This document shows, piece by piece, positions 21,081-41,826 of a stretch of DNA of 64,000 bases (positions are counted from its first letter, which is position 1; every line of letters starts with the position of its first letter). Both the position numbers and the translations under genes were made by a program. The stretch covers positions 864,001-928,000 of the forward strand of contig OY764216.1 in the NCBI GenBank assembly GCA_963668315.1. The letters run 5' to 3'. The notes under the pieces were generated by a model. That model did no database searches, was not told the origin of the DNA, and saw nothing but the letters and a program-made list of their open reading frames with translations. The DNA is from Spirochaetia bacterium. Its GTDB lineage: Bacteria > Spirochaetota > Spirochaetia > DSM-2461.

Positions 21081-21411
21081 ATATCTCAAGATCGTGGAGT
21101 GGTCCGAGGAGCATCAGTGCTATGTGGGCTCCTGCCCCGGATTACTGACGGGGGGAGGAGTCTACGGCGATGATGAGACCGCGGTATACAGAGACCTCTG
21201 CCGTTATGCCGAGGAGTGGATAGAAATTATGGAGAGGGACGGAATTCCCCTTCCCGAGGAAACGGCCCAGAAAACCTATTCGGGGAAATTTGTCCTAAGG
21301 ACGGGAAAGACACTTCACAAGGAGCTGGCTCTGAAAGCCCTGGTAAAAGGAGTCAGCCTTAATGCTTTCTGTCTGGATATCCTGAAAAAAGGGTTAGTGG
21401 ACGAAATGTGA
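21064..21411 (+). CDS. hicB: HicB-family antitoxin-like protein
   Basis: VEWSEEHQCYVGSCPGL, GIPLPE and an RHH-like tail YSGKFVLR...LHKELALKA...SLN. Confidence 0.78.
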   Translation: MKKSDKYLKIVEWSEEHQCYVGSCPGLLTGGGVYGDDETAVYRDLCRYAEEWIEIMERDGIPLPEETAQKTYSGKFVLRTGKTLHKELALKALVKGVSLNAFCLDILKKGLVDEM

Positions 21412-21785
21412 AGAAACTTCACAAAAAACACAAAATACAGGAAAAAAGAGTAGATTTCCCGGCAGGTATATAGTATAAACGGGAGTAGAATATTTAGCCC
21501 AGCTAAGGATTTAAAAAAATACGGCAGAAAAAAAAGCGGTTCTTTGCCGCTGCTTCTCCGGGGGGGGCGGTTCCCGATCTGGGCCGGGCGGCTTTTCTTT
21601 CTGAAAATGATCGGGCCGGAATGGCAACACAGATCCGCGACTATCTATCCCGCCCCTAGTTCGTTTCCTCCTGCTTTGCTCTCCCCGTTGATAGAGGAGC
21701 GAGAATCCCCCCAAACTAAATAAATTCATCTTTATTCTATGCCCCTCCGATAATTAAAGAGAAGTACTCTCTCAGGAGCGGACCT

Positions 21786-24700
21786 TTGACTATTCGATCT
21801 GTGATATATCTAATCCTCATTCTAAGCTTTCCGGCTGTGATTTTTACCCAGGAAGGGGAGAGCCGAGAGCCCGGCGATGCCTCCTATTACGAGGCGGAAG
21901 GTCTGGAAGCCTGGCAGTATGAGTTCAATCTTTCCGGATACGAACCGGGGACCTATAATATTATCATCGAAGGGCTGGACAAAGCGGGAAACACCGCCAC
22001 TGCCGGTCCGTATAACCTGTATATTGATCCCGATTCGGATAAACCCATCGTGCATATCATCAATCCCGAACCCGGTATGGGAGTGAACGGGAATGTAAAT
22101 ATCATAGGGACCTGCACCGATGACGACGGGGTCGCCTACGTTGAATTGAAAATTAATGACGGAGCCTACAGCCGGGCGGAAGGGACGGATTTCTGGTCTC
22201 ATTTTCTCAACACGGACAGCCTGGGGGACGGCCCCGTTTCTCTCTCCGCCCGGGGAGTGGATATAAACGGGGTTACCGGTGATGAGACGCTTCTCTCTTT
22301 TACTCTGGACAGCCGCGCCCCCGTAACGCGTGTGACATCCCATGGGAACGGTGTCCTTGTCAACGGGAAAATCTCCCTGGAAGGCAGTGTTTCCGATTCG
22401 AACGGAGTACGGAGTCTCGAATACAGCCGGGACGGAGGGACGACCTATGTGCCCCTGTCTCTCAAGGGTAAGAAGAGCAGCCCGGAAAAAACCTACCGGA
22501 TTTCCGTGAATACAAAAGAGCTGGAGGACGGTCCCCAGATCTACTGGTTCCGTGCTGTGGATAACTCCGGTTCAGAAGGGTTGTCCTCCTTTCTGTTCTT
22601 TGTGGATAACAGCCCCCCCGAAATCTCCCTGATCTATCCCGCGGCCGATGAGAAGGTCAACGGAAAAGTGGTCGTCGCCGGATACGCGGTGGATGAAATC
22701 GGCCTTTCAAATCTGACCTGCCGATCGGGAAAGGATGACCCGGAAGAGATTCTTCTCAAGGAGGGAGATCCTTACTGGGTGAAGGAATTTGATTTTACCG
22801 GCAGGGACAAAGGGGATATCCGTTTTGAGCTGACTGACCGGGCGGGCAATGTCTCCGAAGCCCGTCTGGAGCTGCAGTTGGACAGGGAAGGGGACAAACC
22901 GCTTGTTACACTGGTATCTCCCCTTCCGGGAGAGATTCCTGCCCGGACTGCGCTTGCCGGATTCGTGAGCGACGATGACGGGGTGGAGAAGATTCTCTAT
23001 TCCCTGGACGGCGGCGATCCCATGGAAATTCCCGCCCGTTACTCCTTTTATGAGTCTCTGGAGGGCCTGAGGGCGGGTTTCCACAGGCTTGAGATCTCGG
23101 CGGTGGATATTAACGGAGTAAGCAGTGATACTCAAAAAGTGGATTTTACGATTGCCGGGGCTAAGCCGCAAATTCGAATGGACCGCTATATCCCCCTCCA
23201 GGGAGAAGGTTCCGTGTCCTTTGTTCAGGGGGGAGAAATTGAGGAAGGTCTGTATAAAAGCCTGGAGGGGGCGGTCTTTTTCGCCAACCCGGCCGCAGAA
23301 GTTTTCGGTGCCTGGGATGGGGGGGGAGAGCTGAAAATCTCTCCGAAGAAACAGAGCGATTCGGAGTGGCAGTATTTTTCCCTCAGTCTGAAGGATATTC
23401 TTCCCGGCTATCATACTCTCCATATCCGGCTGGCTGACCAGGCGGGGCTGACGGAAGAGAAAACCTATTTTTTCTTTCTGAAAGGAGAAACGGCTCCCGG
23501 GGCGGAAAAGATGCTATATACGGGAGATGAACGGTTTAGAAGCGGTGGAAAACCTGTGGATAATCCTGTGGATATCCGGGAGGATAACCCACTGGTCTTC
23601 TATCTGGGAGAGCAGGCGGTAAGGGCCGAATTATCGGCAGAAGCGGATTTTCTCTCGGTCAAGAGGGAAGATCACCGGGTCATTGTTTCTGCCGATTCAC
23701 CGGGCTATGCCGGGGATCTCACCCTGGAGATTGAGACCTCTTCGGGGAAAACCTATCAGGTCGGGCCGTTTTCTGTGATCCGGGATGATCAGGTCCCTTC
23801 CATCGCTCTGGACGAGGAGAGGAGTGATCGGGTCTACCGTGACGGGTTTCTGCTGTCCGGAACCGTTGCTGATGACACGGAGGTCACGGACTTGTCTCTG
23901 AGTGTGAACGGAGGAGCTTTTTCCTCCGTGGAAAGGGAGGAAGGTCGCTTCAATCGTCAGGTCGATTTTCAAGCCCTCGGTGAGGGGGATCTTCATTTTG
24001 TTCTGAAAGCCGAAGACAGGGCGGGATGCGTCGATTATCAAGAGATCCTTGTCAGGAAGGACAGCACTCCTCCTGCCCTGAAACAGCTGACTCCCGTCCC
24101 GGGGAGAAGCATCAACGGGGTTATCTCTTATACCGGTCTCATAGGGGGAGAGAGCGGAGGTTCCGTGCTGACCGAATACTCCCCCGATGGTGAGAACTAT
24201 CTCCCCCTGGAAGGGGAAAATTTTCCCCGATGCCCCATCGATCTCACTCCCGGAGCCGAGGCTTTTGCCGGAAGTTTCCGCCTGACCGATGAGGCGGGAA
24301 ACACGGAGGTGTTCATGCCGGACCTGACCATTGATGAAGAGGGGGATCTTCCTCTGGTACAGATTCAGATTCCGTCCGATGATTATCTGGCCGAAAGAGA
24401 CTTCCTTGTGTCCGGCATGGCTTTTGATGACGACAGGGTCAAGTCGATTAAATACAGGATAGACGAAGGTGAGTTTGTCCTGCTGGAGGGGGGAAACAAT
24501 TTTGAGATACCCCTGGCCTTACAGAATTTGACGGATAATTCCCATCTTCTGGAAGTAATCGCCGTTGATCTGAATGATGTGGAGAGTAAACCGGCCTTTC
24601 TTAACTTTCATGTTTCACGGGACAAACCCGTCTCCGAACTGACGGCGCCCGCGCTCGGGGAAATTGTCCGGGGGGATGTTCTCCTGACCGGCATGTCACG

Positions 24701-26456
24701 GGATAACAACGGGATCGGCAGCGTTTATCTCTCCTATGACAACGGAAATACCTTTAACCGGATTCCCGTGGAGGAAGGGGGTGAACAATCGGACGAGTCG
24801 GTCAGCTGGCACTATCTCTTTAACACGGAAATGCTCAGGGACGGCCGCCATTCTCTTCTTGTCAGGGCGGTGGATAAATACGGCGCATCCAGCCTTTATA
24901 CGACCATGATCAATGTGGATAATACTCCGCCTGTCCTCTCTCTCTCCGAACCGGCAGAGGGCGCGAGGATAAGCGGCGAGACGGTGTTCAAGGGGCTGGC
25001 GTCGGACAATCGGGGCCTGAGTGATATAGGGATCGAGTTCAAATCCCTTTCGGGTGCCTCTCCCGGGCAGAGTCTGGAGTTAAATTCATCGGGAACGATT
25101 TTTGAAGAACTGGATATGTCCTCCTTTGAACCGGGATGGGTGAATATGAGACTGACCGCCACGGATATTACGGGAAACGAATCGATTATCAGCCGCAACC
25201 TGTTTCTGACGGAGAGGGAGGATCTGGAAAGAGTCCTGCTTCTTTCGCCCGCCTCGGGATCGGATGTCACGGACAGACTGATCGTGCAGGGGAGGGTGGA
25301 GAATATGGCCCATCCGGGAAAAACGACTATCCTTTTTGACGGCGTTTCCCGGACAGATCTGGAACTTTCCGAAAGGGGATACTTTCATTACGCCCTGGGA
25401 AAGGATGACGTGACCGAAGGAGTACATACCCTGCGGATTTCCCAGAAAACGGAAGAGGGGAACGAGGTCCTGTCGGAACCGGTGGAGGTTACCTATTCTT
25501 CAAGGGGCCCCTGGATAAGTATCGATAGTTTTCAGGCGGGCGACTTCATTACACAGAGGCCGTGGCTAAGCGGCACAACAGGATATAACTTCTCTCCTCC
25601 CGCCCTGGAGGGGAAAGAACTGGAGAAGTACAACAGAACGAAAGAGGCCGAACTGATCGAGATCAGCCTGGATAACGGCCGATCATTCCGCCCCGCCTCC
25701 GGCTCAGCCACATGGAAATTCCGGCTGGAGACACAGGAGCTGGAAGCAGGGGAGTTGTGGATTCTGGCCCGTGCCCGTTTCGCCGACGGAACGACGGCCG
25801 TGACGAAGACTCTGGTTCTAGTCGATGAGAATCCTCCTTCCCTTGACCTGATAACACCGGCCCAGGAGGGCATGCGGTTCAACGGGATACTGGCTCTCTC
25901 CGGTACGGGGGAAGATGAGAACGGCCTCGATTCCGTCAACGTCGCCCTTAGAAAGGGAGATAAGAACCGCTACGAAGTCCCCGCCTTTATTCAGGGTCTC
26001 TACATTGATATGCACTTTATGGGCTCGTCCTTTTTTGAGCTGGGTGCGGGACTGACCTTTTTTGACGACAATGTCAAACTTCAGGGGCAGCTGGGCTATG
26101 CTCCCCCCGGGCGGTTCTCCGGTTTTGTTTCCGGAGTCAAGCTGCTGGCCAATATCGCCGTTATCCCCTGGAATTACTATCTGGGTTACGACTTCAAGGA
26201 TTTTTCCTCCTCCGTGACGATGGGGACGGTATTCAACTATTTCTCCATGAGCGACAGTTCCCCCTTCGGTTCGGACGGGGTAATTCTGGGAGCCTTCCTG
26301 ACGCAGATTGAACTGGTGAAGTGGAAAAATCCGGACTGGAAATATTTCAGTGCCTTCGGTTTCTATACGGAGGCGGAGTTCTGGTTTATTTCGTCAGACA
26401 TTAACGCCGGCATAGAGCCGCGCCTTACATTCGGGCTTAGAACAGATGTTTTTTGA
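21786..26456 (+). CDS. Large exported Ig-like (Big) repeat protein with a probable C-terminal outer-membrane beta-barrel, 1556 aa
   Basis: TTG start with SD AGGAG and a cleavable-type signal peptide. Recurring ~90-100 aa units (xDxxxP..I..P...G...D..G...V). The last ~150 aa are amphipathic strands ending RLTFGLRTDVF. Confidence 0.75.
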   Translation: MTIRSVIYLILILSFPAVIFTQEGESREPGDASYYEAEGLEAWQYEFNLSGYEPGTYNIIIEGLDKAGNTATAGPYNLYIDPDSDKPIVHIINPEPGMGVNGNVNIIGTCTDDDGVAYVELKINDGAYSRAEGTDFWSHFLNTDSLGDGPVSLSARGVDINGVTGDETLLSFTLDSRAPVTRVTSHGNGVLVNGKISLEGSVSDSNGVRSLEYSRDGGTTYVPLSLKGKKSSPEKTYRISVNTKELEDGPQIYWFRAVDNSGSEGLSSFLFFVDNSPPEISLIYPAADEKVNGKVVVAGYAVDEIGLSNLTCRSGKDDPEEILLKEGDPYWVKEFDFTGRDKGDIRFELTDRAGNVSEARLELQLDREGDKPLVTLVSPLPGEIPARTALAGFVSDDDGVEKILYSLDGGDPMEIPARYSFYESLEGLRAGFHRLEISAVDINGVSSDTQKVDFTIAGAKPQIRMDRYIPLQGEGSVSFVQGGEIEEGLYKSLEGAVFFANPAAEVFGAWDGGGELKISPKKQSDSEWQYFSLSLKDILPGYHTLHIRLADQAGLTEEKTYFFFLKGETAPGAEKMLYTGDERFRSGGKPVDNPVDIREDNPLVFYLGEQAVRAELSAEADFLSVKREDHRVIVSADSPGYAGDLTLEIETSSGKTYQVGPFSVIRDDQVPSIALDEERSDRVYRDGFLLSGTVADDTEVTDLSLSVNGGAFSSVEREEGRFNRQVDFQALGEGDLHFVLKAEDRAGCVDYQEILVRKDSTPPALKQLTPVPGRSINGVISYTGLIGGESGGSVLTEYSPDGENYLPLEGENFPRCPIDLTPGAEAFAGSFRLTDEAGNTEVFMPDLTIDEEGDLPLVQIQIPSDDYLAERDFLVSGMAFDDDRVKSIKYRIDEGEFVLLEGGNNFEIPLALQNLTDNSHLLEVIAVDLNDVESKPAFLNFHVSRDKPVSELTAPALGEIVRGDVLLTGMSRDNNGIGSVYLSYDNGNTFNRIPVEEGGEQSDESVSWHYLFNTEMLRDGRHSLLVRAVDKYGASSLYTTMINVDNTPPVLSLSEPAEGARISGETVFKGLASDNRGLSDIGIEFKSLSGASPGQSLELNSSGTIFEELDMSSFEPGWVNMRLTATDITGNESIISRNLFLTEREDLERVLLLSPASGSDVTDRLIVQGRVENMAHPGKTTILFDGVSRTDLELSERGYFHYALGKDDVTEGVHTLRISQKTEEGNEVLSEPVEVTYSSRGPWISIDSFQAGDFITQRPWLSGTTGYNFSPPALEGKELEKYNRTKEAELIEISLDNGRSFRPASGSATWKFRLETQELEAGELWILARARFADGTTAVTKTLVLVDENPPSLDLITPAQEGMRFNGILALSGTGEDENGLDSVNVALRKGDKNRYEVPAFIQGLYIDMHFMGSSFFELGAGLTFFDDNVKLQGQLGYAPPGRFSGFVSGVKLLANIAVIPWNYYLGYDFKDFSSSVTMGTVFNYFSMSDSSPFGSDGVILGAFLTQIELVKWKNPDWKYFSAFGFYTEAEFWFISSDINAGIEPRLTFGLRTDVF

Positions 26457-26560
26457 GGGGAAAATGGCAAGAATCAGAAAAATAGACTATATTATAAGTC
26501 CATCTGCAAAAGAATTGAGACAAAATCAGGTCATTAATAATGTAAAAAAACGGAGGCACT

Positions 26561-29500
26561 ATGTTTAAGAAGATGCATCCGACAGCAGTTATTCGTCATA
26601 TTATCCTTTTTCCCCTGTTCCTTTTTTTACTTACCACATGTGATTTGTTTTCTCCCAGCCTGGGTGATAAGATTGATACGGATTCTCCTGTTATCGGAAT
26701 TGAAAGTCACGGAAACGGAACCTATGTCGGGGGCACCATTACTCTGTCCGGCTATGCTGCCGATGACTTGGAAGTGAAATCGGTTACGGTCTCTTCCGGA
26801 TCGGTAACCTTCAATGCCCGTCTCTCCGGTGACAGCTGGTCTCTGGATCTGGATACGACGCAATTCACCGATGGTGATCTGGAGCTGACCATTAAAGCCG
26901 TAGACAGCTCCGGTAAAACCGTATCCACCACGGTTCTGCTGATTGTAGATAACAATCCCCCGGCTGTGCTTATTACGTCTCCTACCGAATACGGGAGTTC
27001 ATCCGATTCCGACTTTCCCGAATTCAATAAGGGTTTTACCCTGAAAGGCGAGACCGCCGATGCCACACGTGTGAAAAAAGTCTATGTCTCCTTGTATGAA
27101 GCTGATGGAACGGCTGTTTTCGAAAATGGTGAAGCGAGCGGTACTTCCAGCTGGTATTACACTTTCAATTCGGAGTTGTACTCCCTCAGCGGCGATTACT
27201 TCTTCTTTGTGGAAGCCGAAGATTATTCAGGAAACAGAAACAGTTATTATTACCACATTGAAGACATTATCGATTATGCGGTTGATGCGGGATCCCTTCC
27301 TTCTATAGAGGAGATCAATACCGCCGATCTGAATGGAACAGACCTTTCCTCGTCTCTCCTTACGACGTCCCAGGAAAATCTCCGGCTTGGTTCTGATCCT
27401 GCCGGAACCGTCATGGCCGTCGTATTCAATCCCGATTCCGATCTTCCCCAGTTTGATTTTGTCAGCCCCCCTATTGTCGAGAGCCCCGATAATCCTCTGG
27501 AGGAGAATCGTTTCTCCGTTCCCCAGAGATTTACCGGATATGTGGAAGATGATGATGCCAGCGGCATCGCCTTGGTGGAATTGGCTATTTTTGATTACGA
27601 GACGGATACCCCTCTTGATATATACGGTGAAGAAGTTGCTGATTCCTGGATCTCCCAGGAAGGGAGCGGCCTGGGTAACGAAAGCAGCGATCTGACTTTT
27701 TCGGGGACCCAGTGGATTCTTGATGCGGAGCTGCCGGAAGGAACTTTTTACATAGTCCTCCGCGCCGAAGATGCGTCCGGTGCATCAGCCACGTCCATAG
27801 AAGTGCCCTTCACGGTAAGCGCCAGCGCTCCGAGCATCGTCGTCAACAGTCCCGATCCGGGTACCTATATTGGTATTGGCCGGACGCTATCACTCGACAT
27901 AAATGTGAATAAAAGTGATGGAACTCCCTGGGAGGGAAGCGACGTTTATGTAGATCCCGACGGGGATCTTTCCTGGACGGACGGCAATGCCATTTTGATG
28001 ACGCCCGATGTAAGCGAAGTCGGCCACTTCACTCTGGAGCTTACAGAAGGAACGACGTCCGGCTTTAATTTTACCGGCGACGGTTCTTACACCATAAGAA
28101 TGAGAACGGGAACCGCGACGAATGCAGGTAATGCCACCCTCGGAATCACTGCCGATATTACGGCTCCCACCATGGCGATCACATCTCCCGGTGACGGGGA
28201 TACTCTGAACGGAACCGTTACGATTCGCGGCACCGCCGATGATGTTGCCATCGCGGCTGTCTACGGGAAAATAGAAGCGGGAGATATACCGGAATACACG
28301 TCATACCCTACCGATCCCCTGGCTGACGGCTGGGATTCGATAACCGACAGCGTTTACAACTGGTCTAAAATCCTGGACACGACGGACTACTATACCGCGT
28401 CTCCCGGGACATTGACCCTGCACTATTTCGCCGAAGACGTGGCGGGAAACCGGGGAAGCAGCGGTCTTGTCGATCATCCCTCCCGAATTACGGTTACCGT
28501 GGATCAGGACGGGGATCTGCCGGTGATTAATATCTCCCAGCCCTCCGAAGGCGGACGGCTCGGAATCGATTCCAGTATTATCGGAAATATAACGGACGAT
28601 GACCTTGTCGATGTCTCCTCCCTGACGATCTCCCTTGATGGAAATGATCCTGTTGCCGTCTCTTCGGCGCCCCTTTCCGATTCTACCAATGTCAGCTGGA
28701 GCCACAGCCTGGTTGGCGTGGCCGAAGGCGTCCATACCTTTGAACTTTCCGTGGACGATGTAAAAACCAACGGCGATTCGGTGGCCGGTTCTTCCCTTTC
28801 CTACTCTTTTGTTGTCGATGCGGGACCTCCCTCTCTTAATATCACAGCGCCGGCGGCCAACAGTCTCTGGAATGAAGATGTGGTGATAAGCGGAACGGCG
28901 GTAGATGTGAACGGAGTCAAATCCATGGCTCTCTCCCTTGACGGGACAACCTGGTATCCCATTTCCATTACTCCGACGACCGACTCGACCCTGATAAACT
29001 GGAGCTACACGTTACCTGTCGATCCCGATGGCTCCGACGATATGCAGTATACCGTACAGATTCGCGCGGTGGATCAGGCCGATGCAACAAGTACCGAGTA
29101 TCTTCCCTTTGAAGTGGATACCACTTCTCCCGTGCTGAAGATCACCCAACCTCCCGAATCGGTAACGGTTAACGGCGATGCCGTAACGGTGGGCGGCACG
29201 GTCAGTGATGTCAATGACGTAACCGGTCTGTATTACTATATTGATACGGATGATGTAACGCCCCCTGCCGATTCGGCATCGTGGACTTCAATTCCCATTG
29301 CCTATTCCTGGTCCTTTACGTTTAATACGCTGGATTACAACTCCACTTCCACCGCAGATGATTTTAAAATCTGGGTACGGGCTGTGGATCATGGGGATCT
29401 TCTGAATGAGACCGATGATACGGCGGTCGGACACAGTCTTGTTATTACCATAGATCAGGAGACGGACAGACCGGATATCTCTTTTAATGATCTTGATAAG

Positions 29501-32500
29501 AGTTCCACGGTTGCCTCGGAAAATGTGCTCGTGGGCGCGACATCTCTTTCCGGTTTGATCGAAGATGACGATTCCATTAATCCGGGAACCGATATTCCCA
29601 TTGAGATAAGCATTGACGGAGGAGCCTGGACCGATGTGGATCTGGCTCCGGCTCTGGGCGGTGCCGCCAAACAGACTATCGTCTGGAAACACGATATCTC
29701 AGGGCTTCTGGAAGGGGTCCATCATGTGAAGCTGAGGGCTCGGGATAGTGAATCTTCCGATGACTCCGTCTTTGGCAACTACAGTAATTTTAACTGGAAT
29801 CTGGTAGAAAATGCCGATCTGACGGGAGCCAATACGGACGCCGACAAAGATCTGGGGGTTCCTTTTATCGTTAACAGGGGAGCACCGACGATCGTTATCA
29901 GCAGTCCCGCCAATTACAGTTATCATAATGACGATGTGATCATAAGCGGAACGGCGGAAGACAGCAATGGTGTCAACAAAGTGGAAATCAGCTTTGACAA
30001 CGGAGCCAACTTCGATTTGTTTACGGATTACTCTCCTGCGGTAAGTACCGCATCCTGGTCCTTTACCTATGATTACTCTGTATTGGGAAGCGGCGTTGTC
30101 AGTTATATCGTTCAGGCAACAGACGGGTACAACTCCACCAGTATAGCCCACGGGCAATTCAGTGTGGATGTTGCTCCTCCTTCTCTTATCGTAGGGGAGC
30201 CGGATGCCTCTGATACCGTCAACGGTACGGTGTCCTTTTATGGCACCGCCGGAGATGATATTACCTTGAATAAGGTGTACTACAGCATCCTTCCTTCCGG
30301 GGCGGCTGCCCCGGCAGTTCCCGTTCCGGGTTCAAACGGAGCTATTACTAGCGAGGGGGGCTACACCGAGGCCACGGGGAACTACAGTTGGAGCGATAGT
30401 TTTGATACCGTCTCTGACCCCGTTTTCTCTTCCGGTGACGGCTCTTATGTCTTCAGAGCCCTTGCGATTGATTATGCGGGAAACATGAGCGGAGTCACCG
30501 CCGTCGCTTTTACCGTTTCTCAGGAGTCCGACAGGCCGGAAATTGACCTTTCCACATTCGATAACAGCGGTACATTCCTCACAAATGTCATGCCGACCTC
30601 TCAGCAGATCATCGGAACAATCGTCGATGACGACAGTGTTCAATCGGGTCTGCTTTATATTAAAGTCACGAATACAGCCGACGATACCGTCGTCCGTGAT
30701 TATACGGCTGTCACTGGTCCGCCGACGACCAGCGAGACCTGGAAGCATACGTTTACGGCAAAGCTGCCCAACGGACGTTACAATCTCTATGTGCGGGGAG
30801 CCGATGAGAACTTCATCGATGGAACCCATACCTATACTTCGGACAATTTTTACTGGAATGAGATCGGTCCCATCCCTTTTACCGTCGACGAGGATCTCCC
30901 CGTGACGACACAGACGATTCTCGATGGCGAACGGCTTAACGGATCCTTCAGTCTGTCCGGTACGGCAAGCGATTCCAACGGTATCAAGAGCGTGGATCTC
31001 GTTGTAAAACACAACAATGTCGTTGTCATAGATAATAATCTGGTGACCAATGCCGATCCGTTCTCCTTCCCCAGTCCGTTCTGGTCCCAATCTTATCCCG
31101 TTAACAGCGATGGTTCGGACGACGGGGCTCTGGAATGGACCGTCACCGTTACCGATGCCTTTGACAAGACGCAGTCATATACCAGGGAAGCCTATATCGA
31201 TACCCAGGCTCCCCATGTCACCATTACCAGCCCGAATAGCGGTTCTACCTTGAACGGTTCGATTCTCGTCGAAGGATACAGTAATGACGGGGATACATCG
31301 GCAAGCGAAGTGGACGGCGTCTGGGTCTGGATAGGTAAAGCCGCAGATCTTCCCTCTACAGATCCCTCCAGTGCTGATTTTGCCTCCTGGACCCTTCTCT
31401 CGGGAACGGATGACTGGGAGTACCGTTTCGCCGCCGCTCCCTATGACGGCGATACCTGGGGCGTATATATACTTACCCGGGACAATTTCGGCAATTATTC
31501 CGATCCTTCTGCTGCGGGCAACAACATATCCATAACAATCGATGAATCGGAAAATCTGCCCGTTATTACCCTTTCGACGGCGGCAAATAGCGTTCTGGGT
31601 GCTTCCTCTCTGGTCGAAGGAACCGTTGAAGACGACGATTATGTCGATGTTTCTTCTCTCCAGATAAGTTTTGACGGGGGAACAACCTGGACGGAAATCG
31701 CGAATAAACCGACATCCGACAGCAGCTATGTGAGTTTTTCCCACCCCGTTACCGCTCTTTCCGCCGGAACGGCGGTCTATCCGGTTCGGGTGAAGGCCAG
31801 CGATGTCGGGGAAAACTTTTCAGACGATACGCAGGATATTGATCCGGTAACCACGACCTTTCCTGCTGAGTCGGAGACTCCTCTCCCTGTCTATGTGGAT
31901 AAGGCTCTTCCGGATTTTTCAATAACCCAGGTTGGCAACGGGTTGACCACAGCTGCGGTAACGACAAGCCTTTATATAAATGATTATATCACGTTGACCG
32001 GTACTGCATCGGATGACGTACAGGTTCAGTCTGTTCAGGTCAAGATCGGAGACGGTAATTATACGGCCTATTCCCCTGCCGTCGATGAAGATACGGGCCC
32101 TGAGGACAGTACGAATTTCAATACCTTGTCATGGACCGTCGCAAGCGGACTTGGCCTTAGCGATGATACGACAATCAGTGTCCTCGTGACGGATTATCAT
32201 AATAAAACCAATGAGGAATCCTATCAGCTTCGTGTGGATACCACAGATCCTACGGTGACTTTTACGACAGAAGCAACCAATCCCGATACGGATTATGGGG
32301 AGTACGGAAGCTTCCGGGGAGCCTATAACGGGACCTATACCTTCAAGGGCGAATCCAACGATAATATCAAAATCAGCAAGGTGTACTATCTGTTTGATGA
32401 CACGGCCGGTTCAACCACTTCGGATCCCGCGGCCAGTTGGGCGGAAGCGACAGGCACATACAGCTGGACAGCTGCCTTTGATACGACGGGAGTTGCCGAT

Positions 32501-35500
32501 TCAGCCGATGGGACCGACTACTATTACCTCCATGTCATCGCGACTGACGGTGCGGGAAACTTCTCGACGACTCAGCATTTGCCCTTTATCGTCTATCAGG
32601 ACACGGATAAGCCCATTGTTTCCCTTTCCCAGCCGACAGCCGGCGAAGTTATGGAGTCGAATCCCAGAGTGCTCGGGACGGTCCGGGACGATGACGGCCT
32701 GACTTCCGTTCAGATTTCCCTGAACGGGGGAGCCTATGAGAATGTCGATTCTCCCTCGTCCGTTTCGGGGAAAAGCATCAGCTTTGAACACTCTCTGCTG
32801 GATCAGTCGGACGGAGATTATACCATTCAGATTCGGGCAACCGATTCCGGGTCGGTCATGACGGAATCGAATTCCCTTTCCTTCGGAATTAATAAGCTGG
32901 CCCCCGATCTTGTTCTGGAACAGATAGAGGTCGTGGATATTTACGGCGGAGCTCCCAAAGTTTACTCTTCCTCCAGCGGGACCGTCTCCCTTAATACGAC
33001 CTATATCAACGGGGATTTCACTCTTGTTTTCAGCGCCGGCGACGATAACGGAATCGGTTCGGTTCAAGTCGATACGGGAAGCGGATTCAACGATGCTGTC
33101 AACGAAGGCGATGACGGCTCCGGCGCAGGCGGCATTGCCGACAACGGGATTCAGGATGGAGATGAAGTCTGGACCGATACCTGGTTGTACACTGTCGCTT
33201 CCGACGGTTTGGGAGAGGGCGCCTGTAATATATCCTATCAGGCGTCCGATAGTCTGGGCAAAACGACGGAAGGTCTTGTTACGGTAATTCTGGATACGGT
33301 CAGACCGGTCGTCAGCTTTACCTCGCCCGCCTCGATACCCATGTCCGATTCTCTTGTGAGCCCTCCCTATGACTCCGTGAACAGCGTTTATTACGATGCG
33401 CCCCATGTCAACGGCGATGTCACCATACAGGGGACAGTTTCCGACGACAGTTCTATTCATGATTTGGTCATAACCGGCGGAATTCATGGAAATATGCCTC
33501 TTACCAACGAAAACTCATCCCCCATCAACTGGAAAGTGATCCTTGATACGGCAGCGATAGCCGGCAATGAGACGGCAAACTATCAAAGCGCTCTTGCCCC
33601 TGATTACACTTTTAACACCGGCGATGATGGCGCTTCACCGTGGGATGGTGTCGAGGATGGTGATGAAACCTGGACTCATATCTGGCGCTTTCCCCTCTCT
33701 GTCGTGGCGACCGATGCGGCGGGAAACAAGTCCCAATCCTATACGGATCTGGATTCCAGTTACGTTCCGGTCAGTTATATAGGGTATATTGATATCGATC
33801 CGGACGGAGATCTGCCCAAACTGGCCGTCGTCACGCCCGCTAATGATGCCAGCGTGTCCGGTTCCTTCCTGGTGAACGGAACCATTACCGATGATGACGG
33901 AACAGATTATGTCACCCTTGAATTCGATCTTGATGATGATGGAGCCTGGAATGATTCCGGGGACAGTGAAGGGGGCGTTGATCTGACTCTGACCAATGAT
34001 CTGACCGCTTATAACGGGATAGCCGCCGGAATCACCTTTACCGGCAGCGACATCAATGAATCGACGAAGATTCCTCTCGACGCACCAAGCGGTTCCTGGT
34101 CTATCTCCCTTGCCGCCAGTGATTTCACTACGGCCAAGCTGGCATCGGCCGGATATACAAACAGCGGTTTTATTCGCATGAGGTTCACGCCCTACGACAG
34201 CAATGGTCTTCCGGGAGACGTTCAGATTGTACGGATCTATCTCGATACGGTCTCTCCGTCTTTCTCGGTCCTTTCTCCTGCGACGGGAACACTGCAGAAA
34301 GGCACGGTCACCCTGACCACGACGATTTCCGACGACAAGCAGCTTGATGAATCGAATATGCTGATCAGTTATGACGGGGGAGCCAACTTCTCTTCCATCG
34401 ATTCGGGTGATATCGCCGGACCTTCCGGAACCGGGCCTTATACCTATGACATCTCCATCGATATTGATACGACCGATACGGGGATTGTCTCCGGGGGAAA
34501 CGGACTGCTCGATATTCAGATCAGCGTAACCGATCGTACCAATAAACAGAGTTCGACCAGTGTTTCCTACAGCGTGGACAATACCCTGCCGACGGTTGCC
34601 TGGAATGAGGACGGAGACGGAACCCTGCTGGATCTGCCCTTTATCACGGGACCTGTCTATACCTTCAAGGGGAATGAAAATACCGGAGAAAGTGATGATG
34701 CCTATAAAGTCCTGGGAGCCGCTGAGGACAGCGGTACCATCTCAGGTATAGAAAAGGTGAATGTATACTTTGTTAAAGATGTTTCCGGCACTCTGTATTT
34801 TATGAGTCCCGTTGACAGTGAAACATATACAGATCTGGCTGTTGGTTCCTCCTATGCCGTGATTGATGATGACGGTGATTCCGGTACCGCCGGCGTCAGT
34901 ATTCCCTTCACGGAAAACAGCAACTATGTCATCACGATTGATAACCGGATTGAACAGGGAACTTTTGACGATCAGGCTTTATATCCCGGGATTGGTGACG
35001 GTGACGGTTTTAACGAAAGCCTGAAGACCAAGGAAGGCTATGATGAGTGGTACTCCTTCTTTGATACCAAAGAGCTTCTTGACGGTCCTTTGAATATCTA
35101 TGCGGTGGTTTATGATGAAGCGGGAAATATGAGCTATACCGTTGTCGATGCCCAGGTCATGAATGAACCGCCTCGTGTGACTTCGGTTGAAATCGATAGT
35201 GCTGCTCTTAATGCCGATACCATGAGAACAAAAGTTCTTGGTACTATAGCTCTCGATCTTAATTTGCAGGATGCAACTGGAATAGATGAAAGTACCCTGA
35301 CAATGGAAATTCCCAATCGGTATAATATTGTCAGCGGGGCACCCGATTCTATTGATTCGACATGGGCCGTAGGCTCGGAAAAAATAAGCTGGACCAGTTC
35401 GGATTTCACCTTGACCACACCCGGGACGGATAGTACTTCGGAAACGGCCACCTACAGTATGGATACCACCGATTACGCCAGTGGGTATTATTACCAATTT

Positions 35501-37906
35501 TTCGTAGAGGCAAATGATGTAGACGGGAATCTGGTTACCGAGACATTCTACCTCTGGGTAAATAATGATGATGCTGCGGCTCCCTCTATCTACATGGATG
35601 CTTTTACTCATGACAGTGTTGCTGCTACAGCCGGTCATGTGGAACTTGCCCCATTGAGTACCTTTGACGGCGCTGATGCCGATTTATCAGGTACCGTCAG
35701 GGCAAAGGGAACTACCAATGATGATTCTGTCGTTTCAAGTGTCAGCTTCCAGTACTCCCTGGATTATACCAACGACGGCAATGACGCCAATGATACATGG
35801 GTTACCTCAACATCGGGAACAATGGTACTAACACTTACCGAGGAAGATGAAGCTGCCGGAAAGACCTATGACTGGTCCTATGACTGGGATACATCGGAAA
35901 TTACCGGAAATGCTCAGGCTAATGTCTTTGTCCGTGTCACTTCTTTTGACGGCTCAAATACGGGTATGCTGGCAGCACCTGTTCCCGTCGATATCGTTCC
36001 CTATATTACCGGGATCACCGGAGCCGGTTTTGATTCCGGTCTCCTGACCTATGTCAGGCGGTCTGTAAAGGGAAATTATACGGTACCCATAGGCTCCACC
36101 ATAACGATAACCGGCTACAACCTGCCTGGAACAACCGCAAATGGCGTAACAATCGGGGACCACAGCGGAGTCGTAAATACCGATTATGTCCAACTGACAG
36201 CCGAAGCCGGAGGTACGACGACATCTATTTCTGTCGATCTTGCTGCCACTAGTACCTCGGGAGAGATCCGTGTAACCACCAACGGAGTCAGCAGCATTAA
36301 TAACTCAAATAATGATGACGATGATTCCGAGGCCAATGCGTATAATCCCACCCTGGTCGATGACAGAAAGATTGTCTTCTGGAATGTTTCGTCATTGACA
36401 GGAACGTCCACAGTTACCGATCCCTATATGGCTCCCAATTCAGGAAATTCTGATTTTGACTGGATGTACGTGAAGAGCGGAAAGGAATTGTGGCTGCAGC
36501 CCGGGAGCGGCACAGCTGAAGTGCTGACAAAGAGTATAGGTCTCAGCGGCGGAGCTTTTAACTATAACACCAGCGGCAACCTGATATACCTGTTCAATCA
36601 TGACACGGAATGGAGTTTTTATGACGGATCTTTCTCGTTTTCCGGGTCTGTTCAGTTCGGCCAGGTAGCAAGTCTGGGAGCCTATGATTTTATTACTGCA
36701 GGAGAGAATAAGGATGAGGCTTACAATTGGAATCAGAATACCAACTTCGGGAAGCTTGGCCTTGGAAATATAAATTTCTATGCGGCGGGCGAGAATAATG
36801 TCAGTGAGAACCCTATTCCCTATACGGGATACTCTGCGCTTGACTTGAACAGGTACGAGAATCTGCAGATAAGGAGCGTAGGGAACAGTTCGCTGACCAG
36901 GAATTATGTCGCGTACTTTGATACCGGTGCGGATGAAAGCAGAAGTATTGTCTTCTATTCGTTCCAGACGTCCGATACTTCCGGCGGGACGACAGCCAGC
37001 CAGAATGTCTATTCCAATACGGCTCTATCGACAGAGGCCGTTGCCGGGGGAGGCTTCTTTGCCAATCTCGATAAATTTACCAATGCCGGAGCGGGTGAAT
37101 CGGTATCTCTGACCGGTACTCAGAAAAGTAACAATATGGGAATCGCAACCCCCCGCGGTCGACAGGAAGTCACTACCGCAACAGCCGGCGCAGACAGTAA
37201 TCAGTTTGACCTGGAAGTATTTGATACGGGGGCTACCGATCCCACGGACGGTTATCCCATTGTCTATGCCTATATTGCCTACTTTGATGATGCCAGTCAG
37301 AGTCTGAAAATCGCCGTGAATGAAAACGCGGGATTAGCCGATCCCACAAGTAATCTGGCAGCCTCAAATAAGAGTGCCGATACCTGGTTCACTTCAGGCG
37401 CTATAGACAGCAGTGCCGGTGCATATGTAGACATGGCTATCGATGATAATGGCGGTATCCATCTGGCCTATCAGGATGTCGCCTCGGGTTATTTAAAATA
37501 CGCACGGCTTACATATAATGCCTCAGATCATACTTTCACAACCCGGGAATCGGTCTATGTGGATGCCCTTTTCGGAGCGGGATCACAAAACAGTATTGTG
37601 GTTAAGCAGTTTGGAACAGATGACTACCGACCGGTTATTCTTTCATATTCCAGTGCATATACGGGAACCAAAGCGCCTTTGAGGCTTAGTTATCCCACAA
37701 CAGTTTCAACTGGTGTGACAACAAATTTCGGAGCTGGCGCGAACAGTTCGACCGGCGCATTTACAGGAGCCTGGGAAACCGTTGCCCTGCCTGCCATTTC
37801 CAACCCGGTCAATTCCAAGAGCTTTCTGTACCTGGATGCTTCCGGGAATCCCCAGATAGGTTATACCGGGTCCAATCTTGAAGAGTCGACATATTTAGGC
37901 TTTTAA
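26561..37906 (+). CDS. Giant acidic Ig-like repeat lipoprotein, 3781 aa, with an IPT-like domain and a beta-propeller-like C terminus
   Basis: SD GGAGG and spirochaete-type lipobox FLLTT-C. More than 20 tandem beta-sandwich units, very D/S/T/G rich, with no C-terminal anchor. Confidence 0.8.
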   Translation: MFKKMHPTAVIRHIILFPLFLFLLTTCDLFSPSLGDKIDTDSPVIGIESHGNGTYVGGTITLSGYAADDLEVKSVTVSSGSVTFNARLSGDSWSLDLDTTQFTDGDLELTIKAVDSSGKTVSTTVLLIVDNNPPAVLITSPTEYGSSSDSDFPEFNKGFTLKGETADATRVKKVYVSLYEADGTAVFENGEASGTSSWYYTFNSELYSLSGDYFFFVEAEDYSGNRNSYYYHIEDIIDYAVDAGSLPSIEEINTADLNGTDLSSSLLTTSQENLRLGSDPAGTVMAVVFNPDSDLPQFDFVSPPIVESPDNPLEENRFSVPQRFTGYVEDDDASGIALVELAIFDYETDTPLDIYGEEVADSWISQEGSGLGNESSDLTFSGTQWILDAELPEGTFYIVLRAEDASGASATSIEVPFTVSASAPSIVVNSPDPGTYIGIGRTLSLDINVNKSDGTPWEGSDVYVDPDGDLSWTDGNAILMTPDVSEVGHFTLELTEGTTSGFNFTGDGSYTIRMRTGTATNAGNATLGITADITAPTMAITSPGDGDTLNGTVTIRGTADDVAIAAVYGKIEAGDIPEYTSYPTDPLADGWDSITDSVYNWSKILDTTDYYTASPGTLTLHYFAEDVAGNRGSSGLVDHPSRITVTVDQDGDLPVINISQPSEGGRLGIDSSIIGNITDDDLVDVSSLTISLDGNDPVAVSSAPLSDSTNVSWSHSLVGVAEGVHTFELSVDDVKTNGDSVAGSSLSYSFVVDAGPPSLNITAPAANSLWNEDVVISGTAVDVNGVKSMALSLDGTTWYPISITPTTDSTLINWSYTLPVDPDGSDDMQYTVQIRAVDQADATSTEYLPFEVDTTSPVLKITQPPESVTVNGDAVTVGGTVSDVNDVTGLYYYIDTDDVTPPADSASWTSIPIAYSWSFTFNTLDYNSTSTADDFKIWVRAVDHGDLLNETDDTAVGHSLVITIDQETDRPDISFNDLDKSSTVASENVLVGATSLSGLIEDDDSINPGTDIPIEISIDGGAWTDVDLAPALGGAAKQTIVWKHDISGLLEGVHHVKLRARDSESSDDSVFGNYSNFNWNLVENADLTGANTDADKDLGVPFIVNRGAPTIVISSPANYSYHNDDVIISGTAEDSNGVNKVEISFDNGANFDLFTDYSPAVSTASWSFTYDYSVLGSGVVSYIVQATDGYNSTSIAHGQFSVDVAPPSLIVGEPDASDTVNGTVSFYGTAGDDITLNKVYYSILPSGAAAPAVPVPGSNGAITSEGGYTEATGNYSWSDSFDTVSDPVFSSGDGSYVFRALAIDYAGNMSGVTAVAFTVSQESDRPEIDLSTFDNSGTFLTNVMPTSQQIIGTIVDDDSVQSGLLYIKVTNTADDTVVRDYTAVTGPPTTSETWKHTFTAKLPNGRYNLYVRGADENFIDGTHTYTSDNFYWNEIGPIPFTVDEDLPVTTQTILDGERLNGSFSLSGTASDSNGIKSVDLVVKHNNVVVIDNNLVTNADPFSFPSPFWSQSYPVNSDGSDDGALEWTVTVTDAFDKTQSYTREAYIDTQAPHVTITSPNSGSTLNGSILVEGYSNDGDTSASEVDGVWVWIGKAADLPSTDPSSADFASWTLLSGTDDWEYRFAAAPYDGDTWGVYILTRDNFGNYSDPSAAGNNISITIDESENLPVITLSTAANSVLGASSLVEGTVEDDDYVDVSSLQISFDGGTTWTEIANKPTSDSSYVSFSHPVTALSAGTAVYPVRVKASDVGENFSDDTQDIDPVTTTFPAESETPLPVYVDKALPDFSITQVGNGLTTAAVTTSLYINDYITLTGTASDDVQVQSVQVKIGDGNYTAYSPAVDEDTGPEDSTNFNTLSWTVASGLGLSDDTTISVLVTDYHNKTNEESYQLRVDTTDPTVTFTTEATNPDTDYGEYGSFRGAYNGTYTFKGESNDNIKISKVYYLFDDTAGSTTSDPAASWAEATGTYSWTAAFDTTGVADSADGTDYYYLHVIATDGAGNFSTTQHLPFIVYQDTDKPIVSLSQPTAGEVMESNPRVLGTVRDDDGLTSVQISLNGGAYENVDSPSSVSGKSISFEHSLLDQSDGDYTIQIRATDSGSVMTESNSLSFGINKLAPDLVLEQIEVVDIYGGAPKVYSSSSGTVSLNTTYINGDFTLVFSAGDDNGIGSVQVDTGSGFNDAVNEGDDGSGAGGIADNGIQDGDEVWTDTWLYTVASDGLGEGACNISYQASDSLGKTTEGLVTVILDTVRPVVSFTSPASIPMSDSLVSPPYDSVNSVYYDAPHVNGDVTIQGTVSDDSSIHDLVITGGIHGNMPLTNENSSPINWKVILDTAAIAGNETANYQSALAPDYTFNTGDDGASPWDGVEDGDETWTHIWRFPLSVVATDAAGNKSQSYTDLDSSYVPVSYIGYIDIDPDGDLPKLAVVTPANDASVSGSFLVNGTITDDDGTDYVTLEFDLDDDGAWNDSGDSEGGVDLTLTNDLTAYNGIAAGITFTGSDINESTKIPLDAPSGSWSISLAASDFTTAKLASAGYTNSGFIRMRFTPYDSNGLPGDVQIVRIYLDTVSPSFSVLSPATGTLQKGTVTLTTTISDDKQLDESNMLISYDGGANFSSIDSGDIAGPSGTGPYTYDISIDIDTTDTGIVSGGNGLLDIQISVTDRTNKQSSTSVSYSVDNTLPTVAWNEDGDGTLLDLPFITGPVYTFKGNENTGESDDAYKVLGAAEDSGTISGIEKVNVYFVKDVSGTLYFMSPVDSETYTDLAVGSSYAVIDDDGDSGTAGVSIPFTENSNYVITIDNRIEQGTFDDQALYPGIGDGDGFNESLKTKEGYDEWYSFFDTKELLDGPLNIYAVVYDEAGNMSYTVVDAQVMNEPPRVTSVEIDSAALNADTMRTKVLGTIALDLNLQDATGIDESTLTMEIPNRYNIVSGAPDSIDSTWAVGSEKISWTSSDFTLTTPGTDSTSETATYSMDTTDYASGYYYQFFVEANDVDGNLVTETFYLWVNNDDAAAPSIYMDAFTHDSVAATAGHVELAPLSTFDGADADLSGTVRAKGTTNDDSVVSSVSFQYSLDYTNDGNDANDTWVTSTSGTMVLTLTEEDEAAGKTYDWSYDWDTSEITGNAQANVFVRVTSFDGSNTGMLAAPVPVDIVPYITGITGAGFDSGLLTYVRRSVKGNYTVPIGSTITITGYNLPGTTANGVTIGDHSGVVNTDYVQLTAEAGGTTTSISVDLAATSTSGEIRVTTNGVSSINNSNNDDDDSEANAYNPTLVDDRKIVFWNVSSLTGTSTVTDPYMAPNSGNSDFDWMYVKSGKELWLQPGSGTAEVLTKSIGLSGGAFNYNTSGNLIYLFNHDTEWSFYDGSFSFSGSVQFGQVASLGAYDFITAGENKDEAYNWNQNTNFGKLGLGNINFYAAGENNVSENPIPYTGYSALDLNRYENLQIRSVGNSSLTRNYVAYFDTGADESRSIVFYSFQTSDTSGGTTASQNVYSNTALSTEAVAGGGFFANLDKFTNAGAGESVSLTGTQKSNNMGIATPRGRQEVTTATAGADSNQFDLEVFDTGATDPTDGYPIVYAYIAYFDDASQSLKIAVNENAGLADPTSNLAASNKSADTWFTSGAIDSSAGAYVDMAIDDNGGIHLAYQDVASGYLKYARLTYNASDHTFTTRESVYVDALFGAGSQNSIVVKQFGTDDYRPVILSYSSAYTGTKAPLRLSYPTTVSTGVTTNFGAGANSSTGAFTGAWETVALPAISNPVNSKSFLYLDASGNPQIGYTGSNLEESTYLGF

Positions 37907-37918
37907 GGAATATGAGTG

Positions 37919-37946
37919 ATAGGACCTCCGGAGAGGGAGGTCCTAT
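37919..37946. terminator. Perfect 11-bp hairpin between the convergent giant lipoprotein and SBP-like genes
   Basis: ATAGGACCTCC (37919-37929) pairs with GGAGGTCCTAT (37936-37946). Confidence 0.7.
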
Positions 37947-38989
37947 TCTTCCACAAACCGCCTCAGTTCCATCCCGTACTCCCGCATTTCCCGGGTATTC
38001 GATAATTCCTGCCAGCTCGCTATATGCTGTGCGAAGGCGTCATCATCCTGGGAGTAAAAAAAACGCTGGAGCCGATAGGTCAGATATTCGCACGTTGCCG
38101 GATTTTTCAGAAAATTCCTGAATTCGGCCGCTTCCGAAGCGGCGGGACTGTCCTGATTGACGACAAGGGAAACTCCGGCTCCGATAAGCCAGGATTTCCG
38201 GTTCCCCTGGGGAAACTTGATGAATTCGATATCGCTTCGGACTTCGGGGGGGATGGGCGTGAGCATCTTATCGTAAAGGAGAGTCATGGCCGCCTTTCCC
38301 TGAGCCATGGCAGCCACTCCTCTGGGCCATCCTTCGTTCCATGTTTCCTCAAGAAAGAACCCCTTTCTCTTCCACCGCTGCAGTATTTCCCAGCTGTTTA
38401 CATAGGGGATATTATCTGTATCGGATCCGGGGATGTAGTCGGTATCGCCGTCATTTAAGGAGATCATGATGTGCTGCGACCATAAGATCAAAGGCCAGAG
38501 ATGGCTGTTCCCCACAGAAAGGGGAGTCATGCCCTGCTCTTTTAATAAATCCAGGGATTTCTCCAGCTCATCCATCGTTTCAGCCGATTCGATGGAGGCA
38601 AGAATCTCATCCGGGATGAGGGACCGATTGACGGCAAGGGTCCATCCTGTGCCCATCCATCTTTTCGGTTCGGAGTATCTAAAGGGAAACTCCTGTTCCA
38701 CGGGCCCCGGCCAGAGGAAAATATCCGGCACGATATCCCCTTCGTAGATCTTCTGCCTTATCTCCCTGGAGTTCAGGGCGGTTAGTCTTACCTGCGTTTT
38801 TCCGTTTTGCGTTTCAAATTGATCTATCAGCGGAGCCAACAGGGCTGACTCGCTTTCGGAAAAATTGTGGACAAAGTTTATTTCGACGGGTTCGGCCGCT
38901 TTACGAATCTGTACTGCTGAGATGATTATCAGAAACAGGGCTATGAGGGCAGTGAGGGAAATAACAGTTTTTTTGTTATTTCTCATCAT
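37943..38989 (-). CDS. Extracellular solute-binding protein-like (family 1), N-terminal membrane anchor
   Basis: Hydrophobic N terminus, FETQN...V, PDIF, GMTPLSVGNSHLWP and QGKAAM. The start is coupled to the tldE stop (TGATG). Confidence 0.65.
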   Translation of the reverse strand: MMRNNKKTVISLTALIALFLIIISAVQIRKAAEPVEINFVHNFSESESALLAPLIDQFETQNGKTQVRLTALNSREIRQKIYEGDIVPDIFLWPGPVEQEFPFRYSEPKRWMGTGWTLAVNRSLIPDEILASIESAETMDELEKSLDLLKEQGMTPLSVGNSHLWPLILWSQHIMISLNDGDTDYIPGSDTDNIPYVNSWEILQRWKRKGFFLEETWNEGWPRGVAAMAQGKAAMTLLYDKMLTPIPPEVRSDIEFIKFPQGNRKSWLIGAGVSLVVNQDSPAASEAAEFRNFLKNPATCEYLTYRLQRFFYSQDDDAFAQHIASWQELSNTREMREYGMELRRFVEE

Positions 38990-41705: not shown

Positions 41706-41826
41706 GGTGATCCGTCCTCGACAGTTTACTATTTTCAAGATAACACGGCCTTTACGGTCATGGCAATGGAAAAAGGTTTCTAATTGATTTCTCCCGGACT
41801 TCATGAATGAAAGATTCGTAATATTA

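Follow-up and report, generated by a model that had tools for sequence, protein, structure and literature searches.

A barrel-anchored immunoglobulin chain and its giant propeller-tipped lipoprotein: an apparently undescribed paired envelope system of flagellated spirochaetes

Several described envelope systems are built on outer-membrane β-barrels, immunoglobulin-like (Ig) domains or lipoproteins. Inverse autotransporters such as intimin and invasin (type Ve) carry an N-terminal 12-stranded barrel followed by a C-terminal Ig passenger, Slam proteins (type XI) consist of a 14-stranded barrel and a periplasmic TPR domain, the eight-stranded barrels of the OmpA type offer no channel for a protein, and the leptospiral Lig lipoproteins, which are exposed at the surface and bind host or surface ligands, are built from repeats of the Big_2 type. 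How spirochaetes hold their loose outer membrane and anchor their very large surface lipoproteins are open questions; here, we describe a concrete candidate for them, a pair of adjacent genes at positions 21786-37906 of a 64,000-nt stretch of contig OY764216.1 from a Spirochaetia bacterium (the window), of which gene 1 encodes an Ig chain ending in a predicted barrel and gene 2 a giant Ig lipoprotein with a conserved cap. An earlier note, made from the DNA letters, had called them a dedicated pair outside the named secretion and adhesin classes, and this description is supported by the co-occurrence of the two genes, their adjacency across swaps of order and their failure to fit the known classes. 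The pair is real and conserved and is an apparently undescribed spirochaetal envelope system, made of known folds in an arrangement for which we found no precedent; its anatomy and genomic partnership are well supported, and its binding, localisation and function are what we infer.

A match to a characterised system was sought among autotransporters, two-partner secretion, RTX adhesins, Slam and sialidases, and the pair fits none of them. Like an inverse autotransporter, gene 1 holds Ig domains and an outer-membrane barrel in one polypeptide, but its barrel is C-terminal and, by prediction, eight-stranded, and its chain is probably periplasmic; a classical autotransporter (type Va) has 12 strands rather than eight, and gene 1 gave no autotransporter match in Pfam or NCBIfam. 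For two-partner secretion (type Vb) there is neither a TpsB 16-stranded/POTRA barrel nor a TpsA domain, and gene 2 has a lipobox; for the giant RTX adhesins there is no RTX match, a signal is present and, as the earlier note had said, no type I, type V or two-partner secretion transporter gene lies among the flanking genes scanned. Slam also pairs a barrel gene with a lipoprotein gene (mentioned in the portion of PMC11358297 available), whereas the pair contains neither a 14-stranded barrel nor a TPR domain. Like LigA and LigB of Leptospira, gene 2 encodes a spirochaetal lipoprotein with tandem bacterial Ig domains, yet its repeats are of the Big_7 type and Big_2 gave no match at E 0.01. The nearest published arrangement that we found is likewise leptospiral: in the same portion of text, LIC12259 is an Ig lipoprotein with an integrin-like end, encoded downstream of a noNterm Omp85 gene (PMC11358297), so that its partner is an Omp85 protein, whereas that of gene 2 is an eight-stranded barrel with an Ig chain of its own.

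Sialidases of family GH33 share Asp-box turns with gene 1 and a propeller with the gene 2 cap; they are recognized by a six-bladed propeller, an F/YRIP motif and Asp-boxes, and gene 1 has no propeller and bears its Asp-boxes singly within Ig domains. A sialidase activity of gene 1 was rejected because the protein parses into Ig repeats and a barrel, and the labels 'neuraminidase' and 'BNR domain', which stand beside 'Ig-like' and 'hypothetical' among the database names of its homologues, are misleading. TDE0471, tried as a Treponema denticola homologue, was likewise rejected as a GH33 sialidase, and the accessible part of its description presents it (as NanH) as a separate six-bladed GH33 enzyme (PMC13717605). 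Searches of the open full-text literature found no paper on the pair, and 'BNR domain' together with Treponema and the locus tags gave zero matches there.

Gene 1 (21786..26456, +; 1,556 residues; Big_7 at E 3e-45) starts at a TTG codon with AGGAG 7 nt upstream and encodes a signal peptide, the Ig chain and the C-terminal barrel; gene 2 (26561..37906, +; 3,781 residues) follows after 104 nt and encodes the Ig-stalk lipoprotein. Both are open reading frames (ORFs), as first read, and each product has one N-terminal hydrophobic segment in line with the signals assigned to it, Cys27 of gene 2 standing after LTT. Beyond Big_7 and related Ig families (including Big_13 and Gmad2), Pfam found nothing else of weight in either protein, and NCBIfam gave for gene 1 only weak Ig-type matches, none with a passing stretch. 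The linker motifs quoted in the earlier note were all found in the sequence, the long form three times in gene 1 and seven times in gene 2, whereas 300 shuffles of each protein gave none. The alternation of the two linker types that it had supposed is wrong, since the long one recurs in gene 2 every 317-401 residues, or about every third domain. Its turn motifs survive in part, since G-x-x-x-D-[DN] occurs 7 and 14 times in genes 1 and 2 (shuffle maxima 5 and 11), but Asp-box turns number just three per protein and in gene 2 do not exceed the shuffle maximum of 5. An assembly artefact was rejected because a single contig of run X1, possibly the source of the window, covers the whole stretch and because in X5, from another study, a contig with about 95% identity runs unbroken across 21536-39500 with the same layout.

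The partnership of the two genes extends well beyond this genome. Among 300 other Spirochaetota genomes, each at least 90% complete, the barrel occurs in 52, and a cap profile, used after a single-sequence search had missed 6 of 16 barrel-positive relatives, matched in 51 of these, twice weakly. The barrel is present in each of the 49 genomes that match the cap at E<1e-24, and the weaker matches in 25 other genomes are, among those listed, limited to the propeller part; several whole families of the phylum sample gave no match to the barrel profiles. Coordinates read by hand place both genes no more than 20 kb apart on one contig in 30 of the 52 genomes, including 15 of the 17 assembled as a single contig. 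In a separate sample of 80 loci, kept of 323 in the species collection, an Ig or cap ORF lies within 2 kb of the barrel in 41 (24 upstream, 15 downstream, 2 divergent). With L089 dropped from the 41 (broken barrel gene), and 24 loci with short flanks and five without a called ORF set aside, the lipoprotein gene adjoins the barrel gene in 40 of 50 assessable loci, in either order, which bears out the suspected pairing. Gene order has changed at least three times, each time on strongly supported branches of a quick tree of 69 barrel proteins.

The window's genome (G000) itself holds a second pair in reverse order (C1:775826-785386), a lipoprotein of 1,841 residues preceding a barrel protein of 1,339, whose barrel is 53% and cap 27% identical to those of the window. 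Several lipoproteins accompany a single barrel gene in G334, G328 and G307, and G334 has at least four capped lipoproteins and four copies of a third gene (see below) for its one barrel. The original description of a strictly two-gene module was therefore too narrow, as this third gene often joins and 10 of the 50 barrel loci have no lipoprotein neighbour.

The most unusual feature of gene 1 is a domain split between its two ends. With a 92-position repeat profile built from the family, gene 1 gave 14 Ig matches, the first and last of which are complementary halves: the first (residues 33-82) covers profile positions 40-89 only, that is, the second half, and the last (residues 1360-1395) covers positions 8-43 only, after which the barrel begins. 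The N-terminal half domain (residues ~33-84; 21882..22037, +) and the barrel-proximal one (residues ~1345-1395; 25818..25970, +) leave no room for the missing strands at either chain end, and in many homologues about a dozen residues separate the signal peptide from the half-domain. Across 260 distinct barrel proteins longer than 1,150 residues, the second half stands at the start in 239, the first half at the end in 258 and both in 237; most of the 23 exceptions have no signal peptide and look N-terminally cut, and four fall narrowly under the threshold. Internal repeat matches resemble these halves in 103 and 26 of 3,287 cases, respectively. The term 'Ig rod' was thus wrong in detail for gene 1, whose chain ends bear complementary half-domains.

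Folded as separate chains, the halves reached a complex score of 0.52 (best of three controls, 0.00), with runs agreeing in at least 96% of contacts and a partner predicted local distance difference test score (pLDDT) of at least 78. Of the complexes used for calibration, 116 of 157 solved ones passed the tool's mark, as did 2 of 215 mismatched pairs, but scores of 0.60 or less account for just 18 of the 157 and for both mismatches, so that the prediction weakly suggests that the halves complement each other. In the RTX adhesin AhLap, according to the part of the text available, an insertion separates the two pieces of an Ig domain, the first half standing in front of the inserted domain and the second half behind it (PMC12077191). 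AhLap and the pair have in common a long Ig stalk, a distal region with a known or putative ligand-binding role and Ig domains made from two separated pieces, but in gene 1 the order of the halves is reversed and the whole chain lies between them. Because the second half comes first, complementation would force one of two arrangements, and the chain is likely either a closed loop of about 13 domains that has the barrel at its joint or part of a head-to-tail series of copies. Closure of a chain on a membrane barrel by a circularly permuted domain would, if true, be a novel design for a tether or clamp.

The last 161 residues of gene 1 (25971..26453, +), which belong to no Pfam family, are predicted to form an eight-stranded outer-membrane barrel with a terminal Phe (10-sequence alignment, pLDDT 83.5, predicted template-modelling score (pTM) 0.74), in agreement with the terminal barrel first proposed. 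The best structural matches are the barrels of OprF (Z 14.3, root-mean-square deviation (rmsd) 3.0, 127 aligned), Legionella porin III, NspA (Z 13.5) and OmpA (Z 12.7). These share the fold at 5-14% identity, whereas the gene 1 barrel sits C-terminal to some 1,350 residues of Ig domains, and the Pfam scan of gene 1, which returned Big families only, found no OmpA-family peptidoglycan-binding domain. The OprF-type matches came from a wide structure search; Foldseek gave no match under E 0.001, and barrel and cap profiles found nothing significant among the sequences of solved structures (for the cap, none under E 0.06). The barrels form a small, distinct family of 256 clusters at 50% identity, and 73 of 85 barrel ORFs end in Phe. 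One member, at L157:14440-15213 (-), is a 257-residue barrel protein that lacks Ig domains and whose N-terminal part is charged and looks helical; its gene lies 10 nt before that of a 1,647-residue capped lipoprotein.

Gene 2 opens with a lipoprotein signal (26561..26677, +) in which Cys27 is followed by a family tag, Cys-x(1-9)-[G/S]LG-x(2-3)-[V/I]D, found in 44 of 52 lipoprotein ORFs with an intact 5' end; several of those without it are cut ORFs or variants. At least 23 Ig-repeat matches follow in a roughly three-domain super-repeat, and total length among complete ORFs of the family spans about 1,560 to 4,330 residues, approximately a threefold range. The distinct tip recognized in the earlier note is the conserved cap formed by the last 760 residues (35618..37903, +), which is predicted as an Ig domain, an IPT/TIG-like domain and a β-propeller (~36368-37903) with variable inserts (62 sequences, pLDDT 79.6, pTM 0.84). 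The predicted propeller has structural matches to CylK (Z 27.9), the lectins PLL (Z 26.7, rmsd 3.0, 304 aligned) and BP39L (Z 25.7), integrin heads (Z 25.4) and many others, all at no more than 11% identity; identity to the PLL/PHL lectins is 9-10%, and enzymes and integrins score alike. The predicted cap fold does not give a function, and an atlas search with the cap returned leads under 0.9 only, namely BNR_4 (16% of members) and TIG. Ahead of the cap, at ~34650-35170 (residues 2700-2870), an Ig domain appears to be interrupted by an acidic insert of ~70-100 residues, in a manner resembling RTX split domains; it is also present in the paralogue, and a crude motif for it matched 21 of 62 lipoproteins. 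A 771-residue lipoprotein with the family tag but without the cap is encoded at L167:5352-7667 (-), between a third-gene copy and another giant Ig ORF.

The two proteins vary to very different degrees between strains. When the first of four related oral Treponema loci, a small sample, is taken as reference, identity to it is 94, 80 and 84% for the barrel proteins and 41, 35 and 28% for the adjoining lipoproteins, with the first 200 residues of the latter best kept (54-57%). The contrast would fit an exposed fibre with a shielded barrel partner, and the well-kept N-terminus may be the contact site. Of the two options originally offered, an anchor with a displayed fibre fits better and a fixed, envelope-spanning strut less well, since lipoprotein length varies, copies multiply per barrel and the sequence is hypervariable.

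Further observations connect the pair with flagella. A sigma-28 (FliA)-type promoter candidate (21726..21753, +) has a degenerate -35, a 15-nt spacer and a -10 TCCGATAA 40 nt before the gene 1 start codon; such a box stands in the same range in 16 of 1,869 genes of this genome, which encodes FliA and has similar variant sites upstream of its flagellins. In relatives the box precedes 17 of 52 barrel, 6 of 25 lipoprotein, none of 10 third and 11 of 269 other genes, and a sigma-54 motif precedes two barrel and four lipoprotein genes and no third or other gene. In four oral Treponema loci there is, 47 nt upstream, a full TAAAG-15-GCCGATAA site, which resembles the flaB2 promoter of T. denticola, where a -10 CCGATAA is mapped in the text available (PMC9481697); compared with that -10 and a TAAA-like -35 at 15 nt, the gene 1 site has the -10 and a degenerate -35. 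Among 251 genomes of the class Spirochaetia (205 flagellated and 46 without flagellin, the latter falling in a few families and so not independent), flagellin is present in all 71 barrel-positive genomes and the barrel in none of the 46, which places the pair in about a third of the sampled flagellated Spirochaetia (71/205). In one locus (L145:92-10742) the barrel gene lies 165 nt downstream of a motA-motB-fliL-fliM cluster (names read from translations), the lipoproteins of that genome being ~130 kb away. Relatives in the gum pathogen T. denticola, which is genetically tractable, make the pair directly testable; there, TDE2708 (hypothetical) and TDE2709 (BNR domain protein), which by label and adjacency only we take to be the pair, reach 1.16e7 and 9.42e6 in intensity-based absolute quantification (iBAQ) and fall to 0.45 and 0.55 in a motB mutant, in the part of the proteome study available (PMC6930189).

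We tentatively favour a surface-displayed, lipid-anchored fibre with a ligand-binding propeller tip, together with a dedicated barrel partner that has a closed loop in the periplasm. The Sec pathway would export the gene 1 product, whose barrel would then insert into the outer membrane and leave the N-terminal chain in the periplasm as in barrels of the OmpA type, and the two halves would fold together only once the whole chain had been exported, giving a loop of about 13 domains and, at ~4 nm per Ig domain, a contour of ~50 nm that could act as a foot or brace under the outer membrane. The lipoprotein would reach the surface via the general spirochaetal route, since an eight-stranded barrel is too narrow to pass it, and might use its conserved N-terminal tag and first domain to dock on the barrel; the tip would bind glycans or surfaces, and the barrel would pass the load on to the loop. 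Co-expression with late flagellar genes would tie the device to motile cells, for example in surface crawling or attachment, and the third protein may be an optional inner-membrane helper or sensor. It is possible, though less likely than not, that we see a new class of envelope machine in flagellated spirochaetes, in which a ring-locking Ig chain on a barrel, or a head-to-tail mesh under the outer membrane, docks interchangeable giant propeller-tipped lipoproteins made alongside the flagellar filament; in the ring version, the chain, its ends locked after export, could close around or against periplasmic structures, be it the cell wall, flagellar filaments or the partner.

A number of findings weigh against the favoured fibre and barrel partner or against its tie to motility. 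Neither 35 of the 52 barrel genes nor the second pair of this genome has the sigma-28 box, the strict sigma-28 pattern missed this genome's own flagellins, 134 of 205 flagellated genomes have no barrel, and the motB mutant altered 326 proteins in total, by the same partial text (PMC6930189). The half-domain complex score lies in the weak range, where one-domain halves can pass by likeness to solved folds, the predicted outer loops of the barrel are short and conserved no more than its strands, and the propeller resembles enzymes and WD40 proteins just as closely (CylK, Z 27.9), so that sugar binding is just a guess. G280 (160 contigs) has the barrel with no cap match, 2 of 17 single-contig genomes keep the pair far apart, and the 10 assessable loci without a lipoprotein neighbour have long flanks. 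The last of these would suit two genes with no physical partnership, namely an adhesin and an outer-membrane tether that act independently, both of them Ig paralogues within a single regulon, whose genes stay together through common descent and regulation; the common repeat suggests an origin by duplication, and either gene can carry its own promoter box. Such independence is nevertheless improbable beside the near-exact co-occurrence, an adjacency that persists through changes of order and strand, and the joint duplication of both genes in this genome.

The flagellar connection could also be read as that of a periplasmic scaffold, in which an inward-facing lipoprotein, the Ig loop or polymer and the third protein tether the membranes or guide the periplasmic flagella. 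Both proteins share a repeat type, the candidate promoter is of sigma-28 type and the barrel is restricted to flagellated genomes, the barrel gene of L145 follows motility genes, the third protein carries a membrane anchor and, in G334, is duplicated along with the lipoprotein, and a 13-domain loop would be of periplasmic size. We consider a scaffold unlikely, because a threefold range in lipoprotein length and 28-41% identity between strains are unlike a fitted structural part, most flagellated spirochaetes have no barrel and, in the genus that holds the T. denticola proteins, 8 of 9 genomes gave no match for the third gene. The several lipoproteins per barrel gene in G334, G328 and G307, the conserved tag beside the lipid anchor and the barrel-only form of L157, which still adjoins a lipoprotein, would also be expected of a Slam-like chaperone or display factor for giant tagged lipoproteins, its loop being a periplasmic holder and not a lasting anchor; eight strands leave no protein channel, and we regard this role as improbable. 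Leptospiral pairs of barrel and Ig-lipoprotein genes are discussed in such terms in the accessible text of PMC11358297, but TDE2708 and TDE2709, should they be the pair, are almost equally abundant, as would be expected of a stoichiometric partner (partial text of PMC6930189).

The third gene (37943..38989, -) converges on gene 2 and encodes 348 residues with an N-terminal membrane anchor and the SBP_bac_1 fold of sugar-binding proteins. Its positional counterparts form a very divergent family, in which 3 of 24 candidates pass the Pfam cut-off for this fold; iterated profiles merge the candidates into one family, and, when sets with no member in common are compared, the subgroup of the window joins with a probability of 96.9%. 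A 24-sequence profile matched at E<1e-24 in 28 of the 300 genomes, 27 of them barrel-positive, 10 of the 28 having supplied sequences to the profile. Of 20 matches outside the profile that were inspected, some picked for their position, eight lie within ~2 kb of a giant lipoprotein, three at contig ends and seven apart, one is an ordinary ATP-binding cassette (ABC) binding protein and one has no passing ORF; an ABC operon context was seen at L178 only. The window's copy has the fold of an ABC importer sugar-binding protein, but the typical permease genes are absent beside it, its neighbours being gene 2 and pmbA/tldD. The third gene is a frequent accessory and not a core part. Its start overlaps the stop of the pmbA/tldD pair (38989-41804, -), with which it is therefore probably transcribed in this genome; the relatives that were viewed do not show such a link.

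Between gene 2 and the third gene lies an 11-bp hairpin (37919..37946), stable on both strands (z -3.75 and -4.85; none of 200 shuffles as stable). The closing hairpin of the earlier note is thus real, but it has no clear U-run and is common to a convergent gene; it was not listed in a terminator scan of the stretch and is likely a bidirectional terminator of both genes. The upstream flank encodes AraC and HicB proteins and the downstream flank the SBP-fold protein, PmbA/TldD, MsrAB and MMPL. The HicB-family antitoxin-like gene (21064-21411, +) has no adjoining HicA-sized ORF of at least 100 residues. The two flanks of 21517-21536 lie ~17.7 kb apart on one X5 contig, so that this point, a short way before the promoter and amid GC-rich inverted repeats, is a site of insertion or deletion. 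Elsewhere in G000, further giant secreted-looking ORFs, unrelated to the family by tblastn, comprise one of 4,944 residues (C1:2309686-2324520) and pairs of 2,703 and 3,440 (3358232-3376643) and of 2,845 and 3,472 residues (3411607-3430568). A cluster of large ORFs with repeated CHAT-like ends at C1:5.43-5.62 Mb is unlike the rest in style, and the single contig may here, at its end, be of foreign origin or the product of a join.

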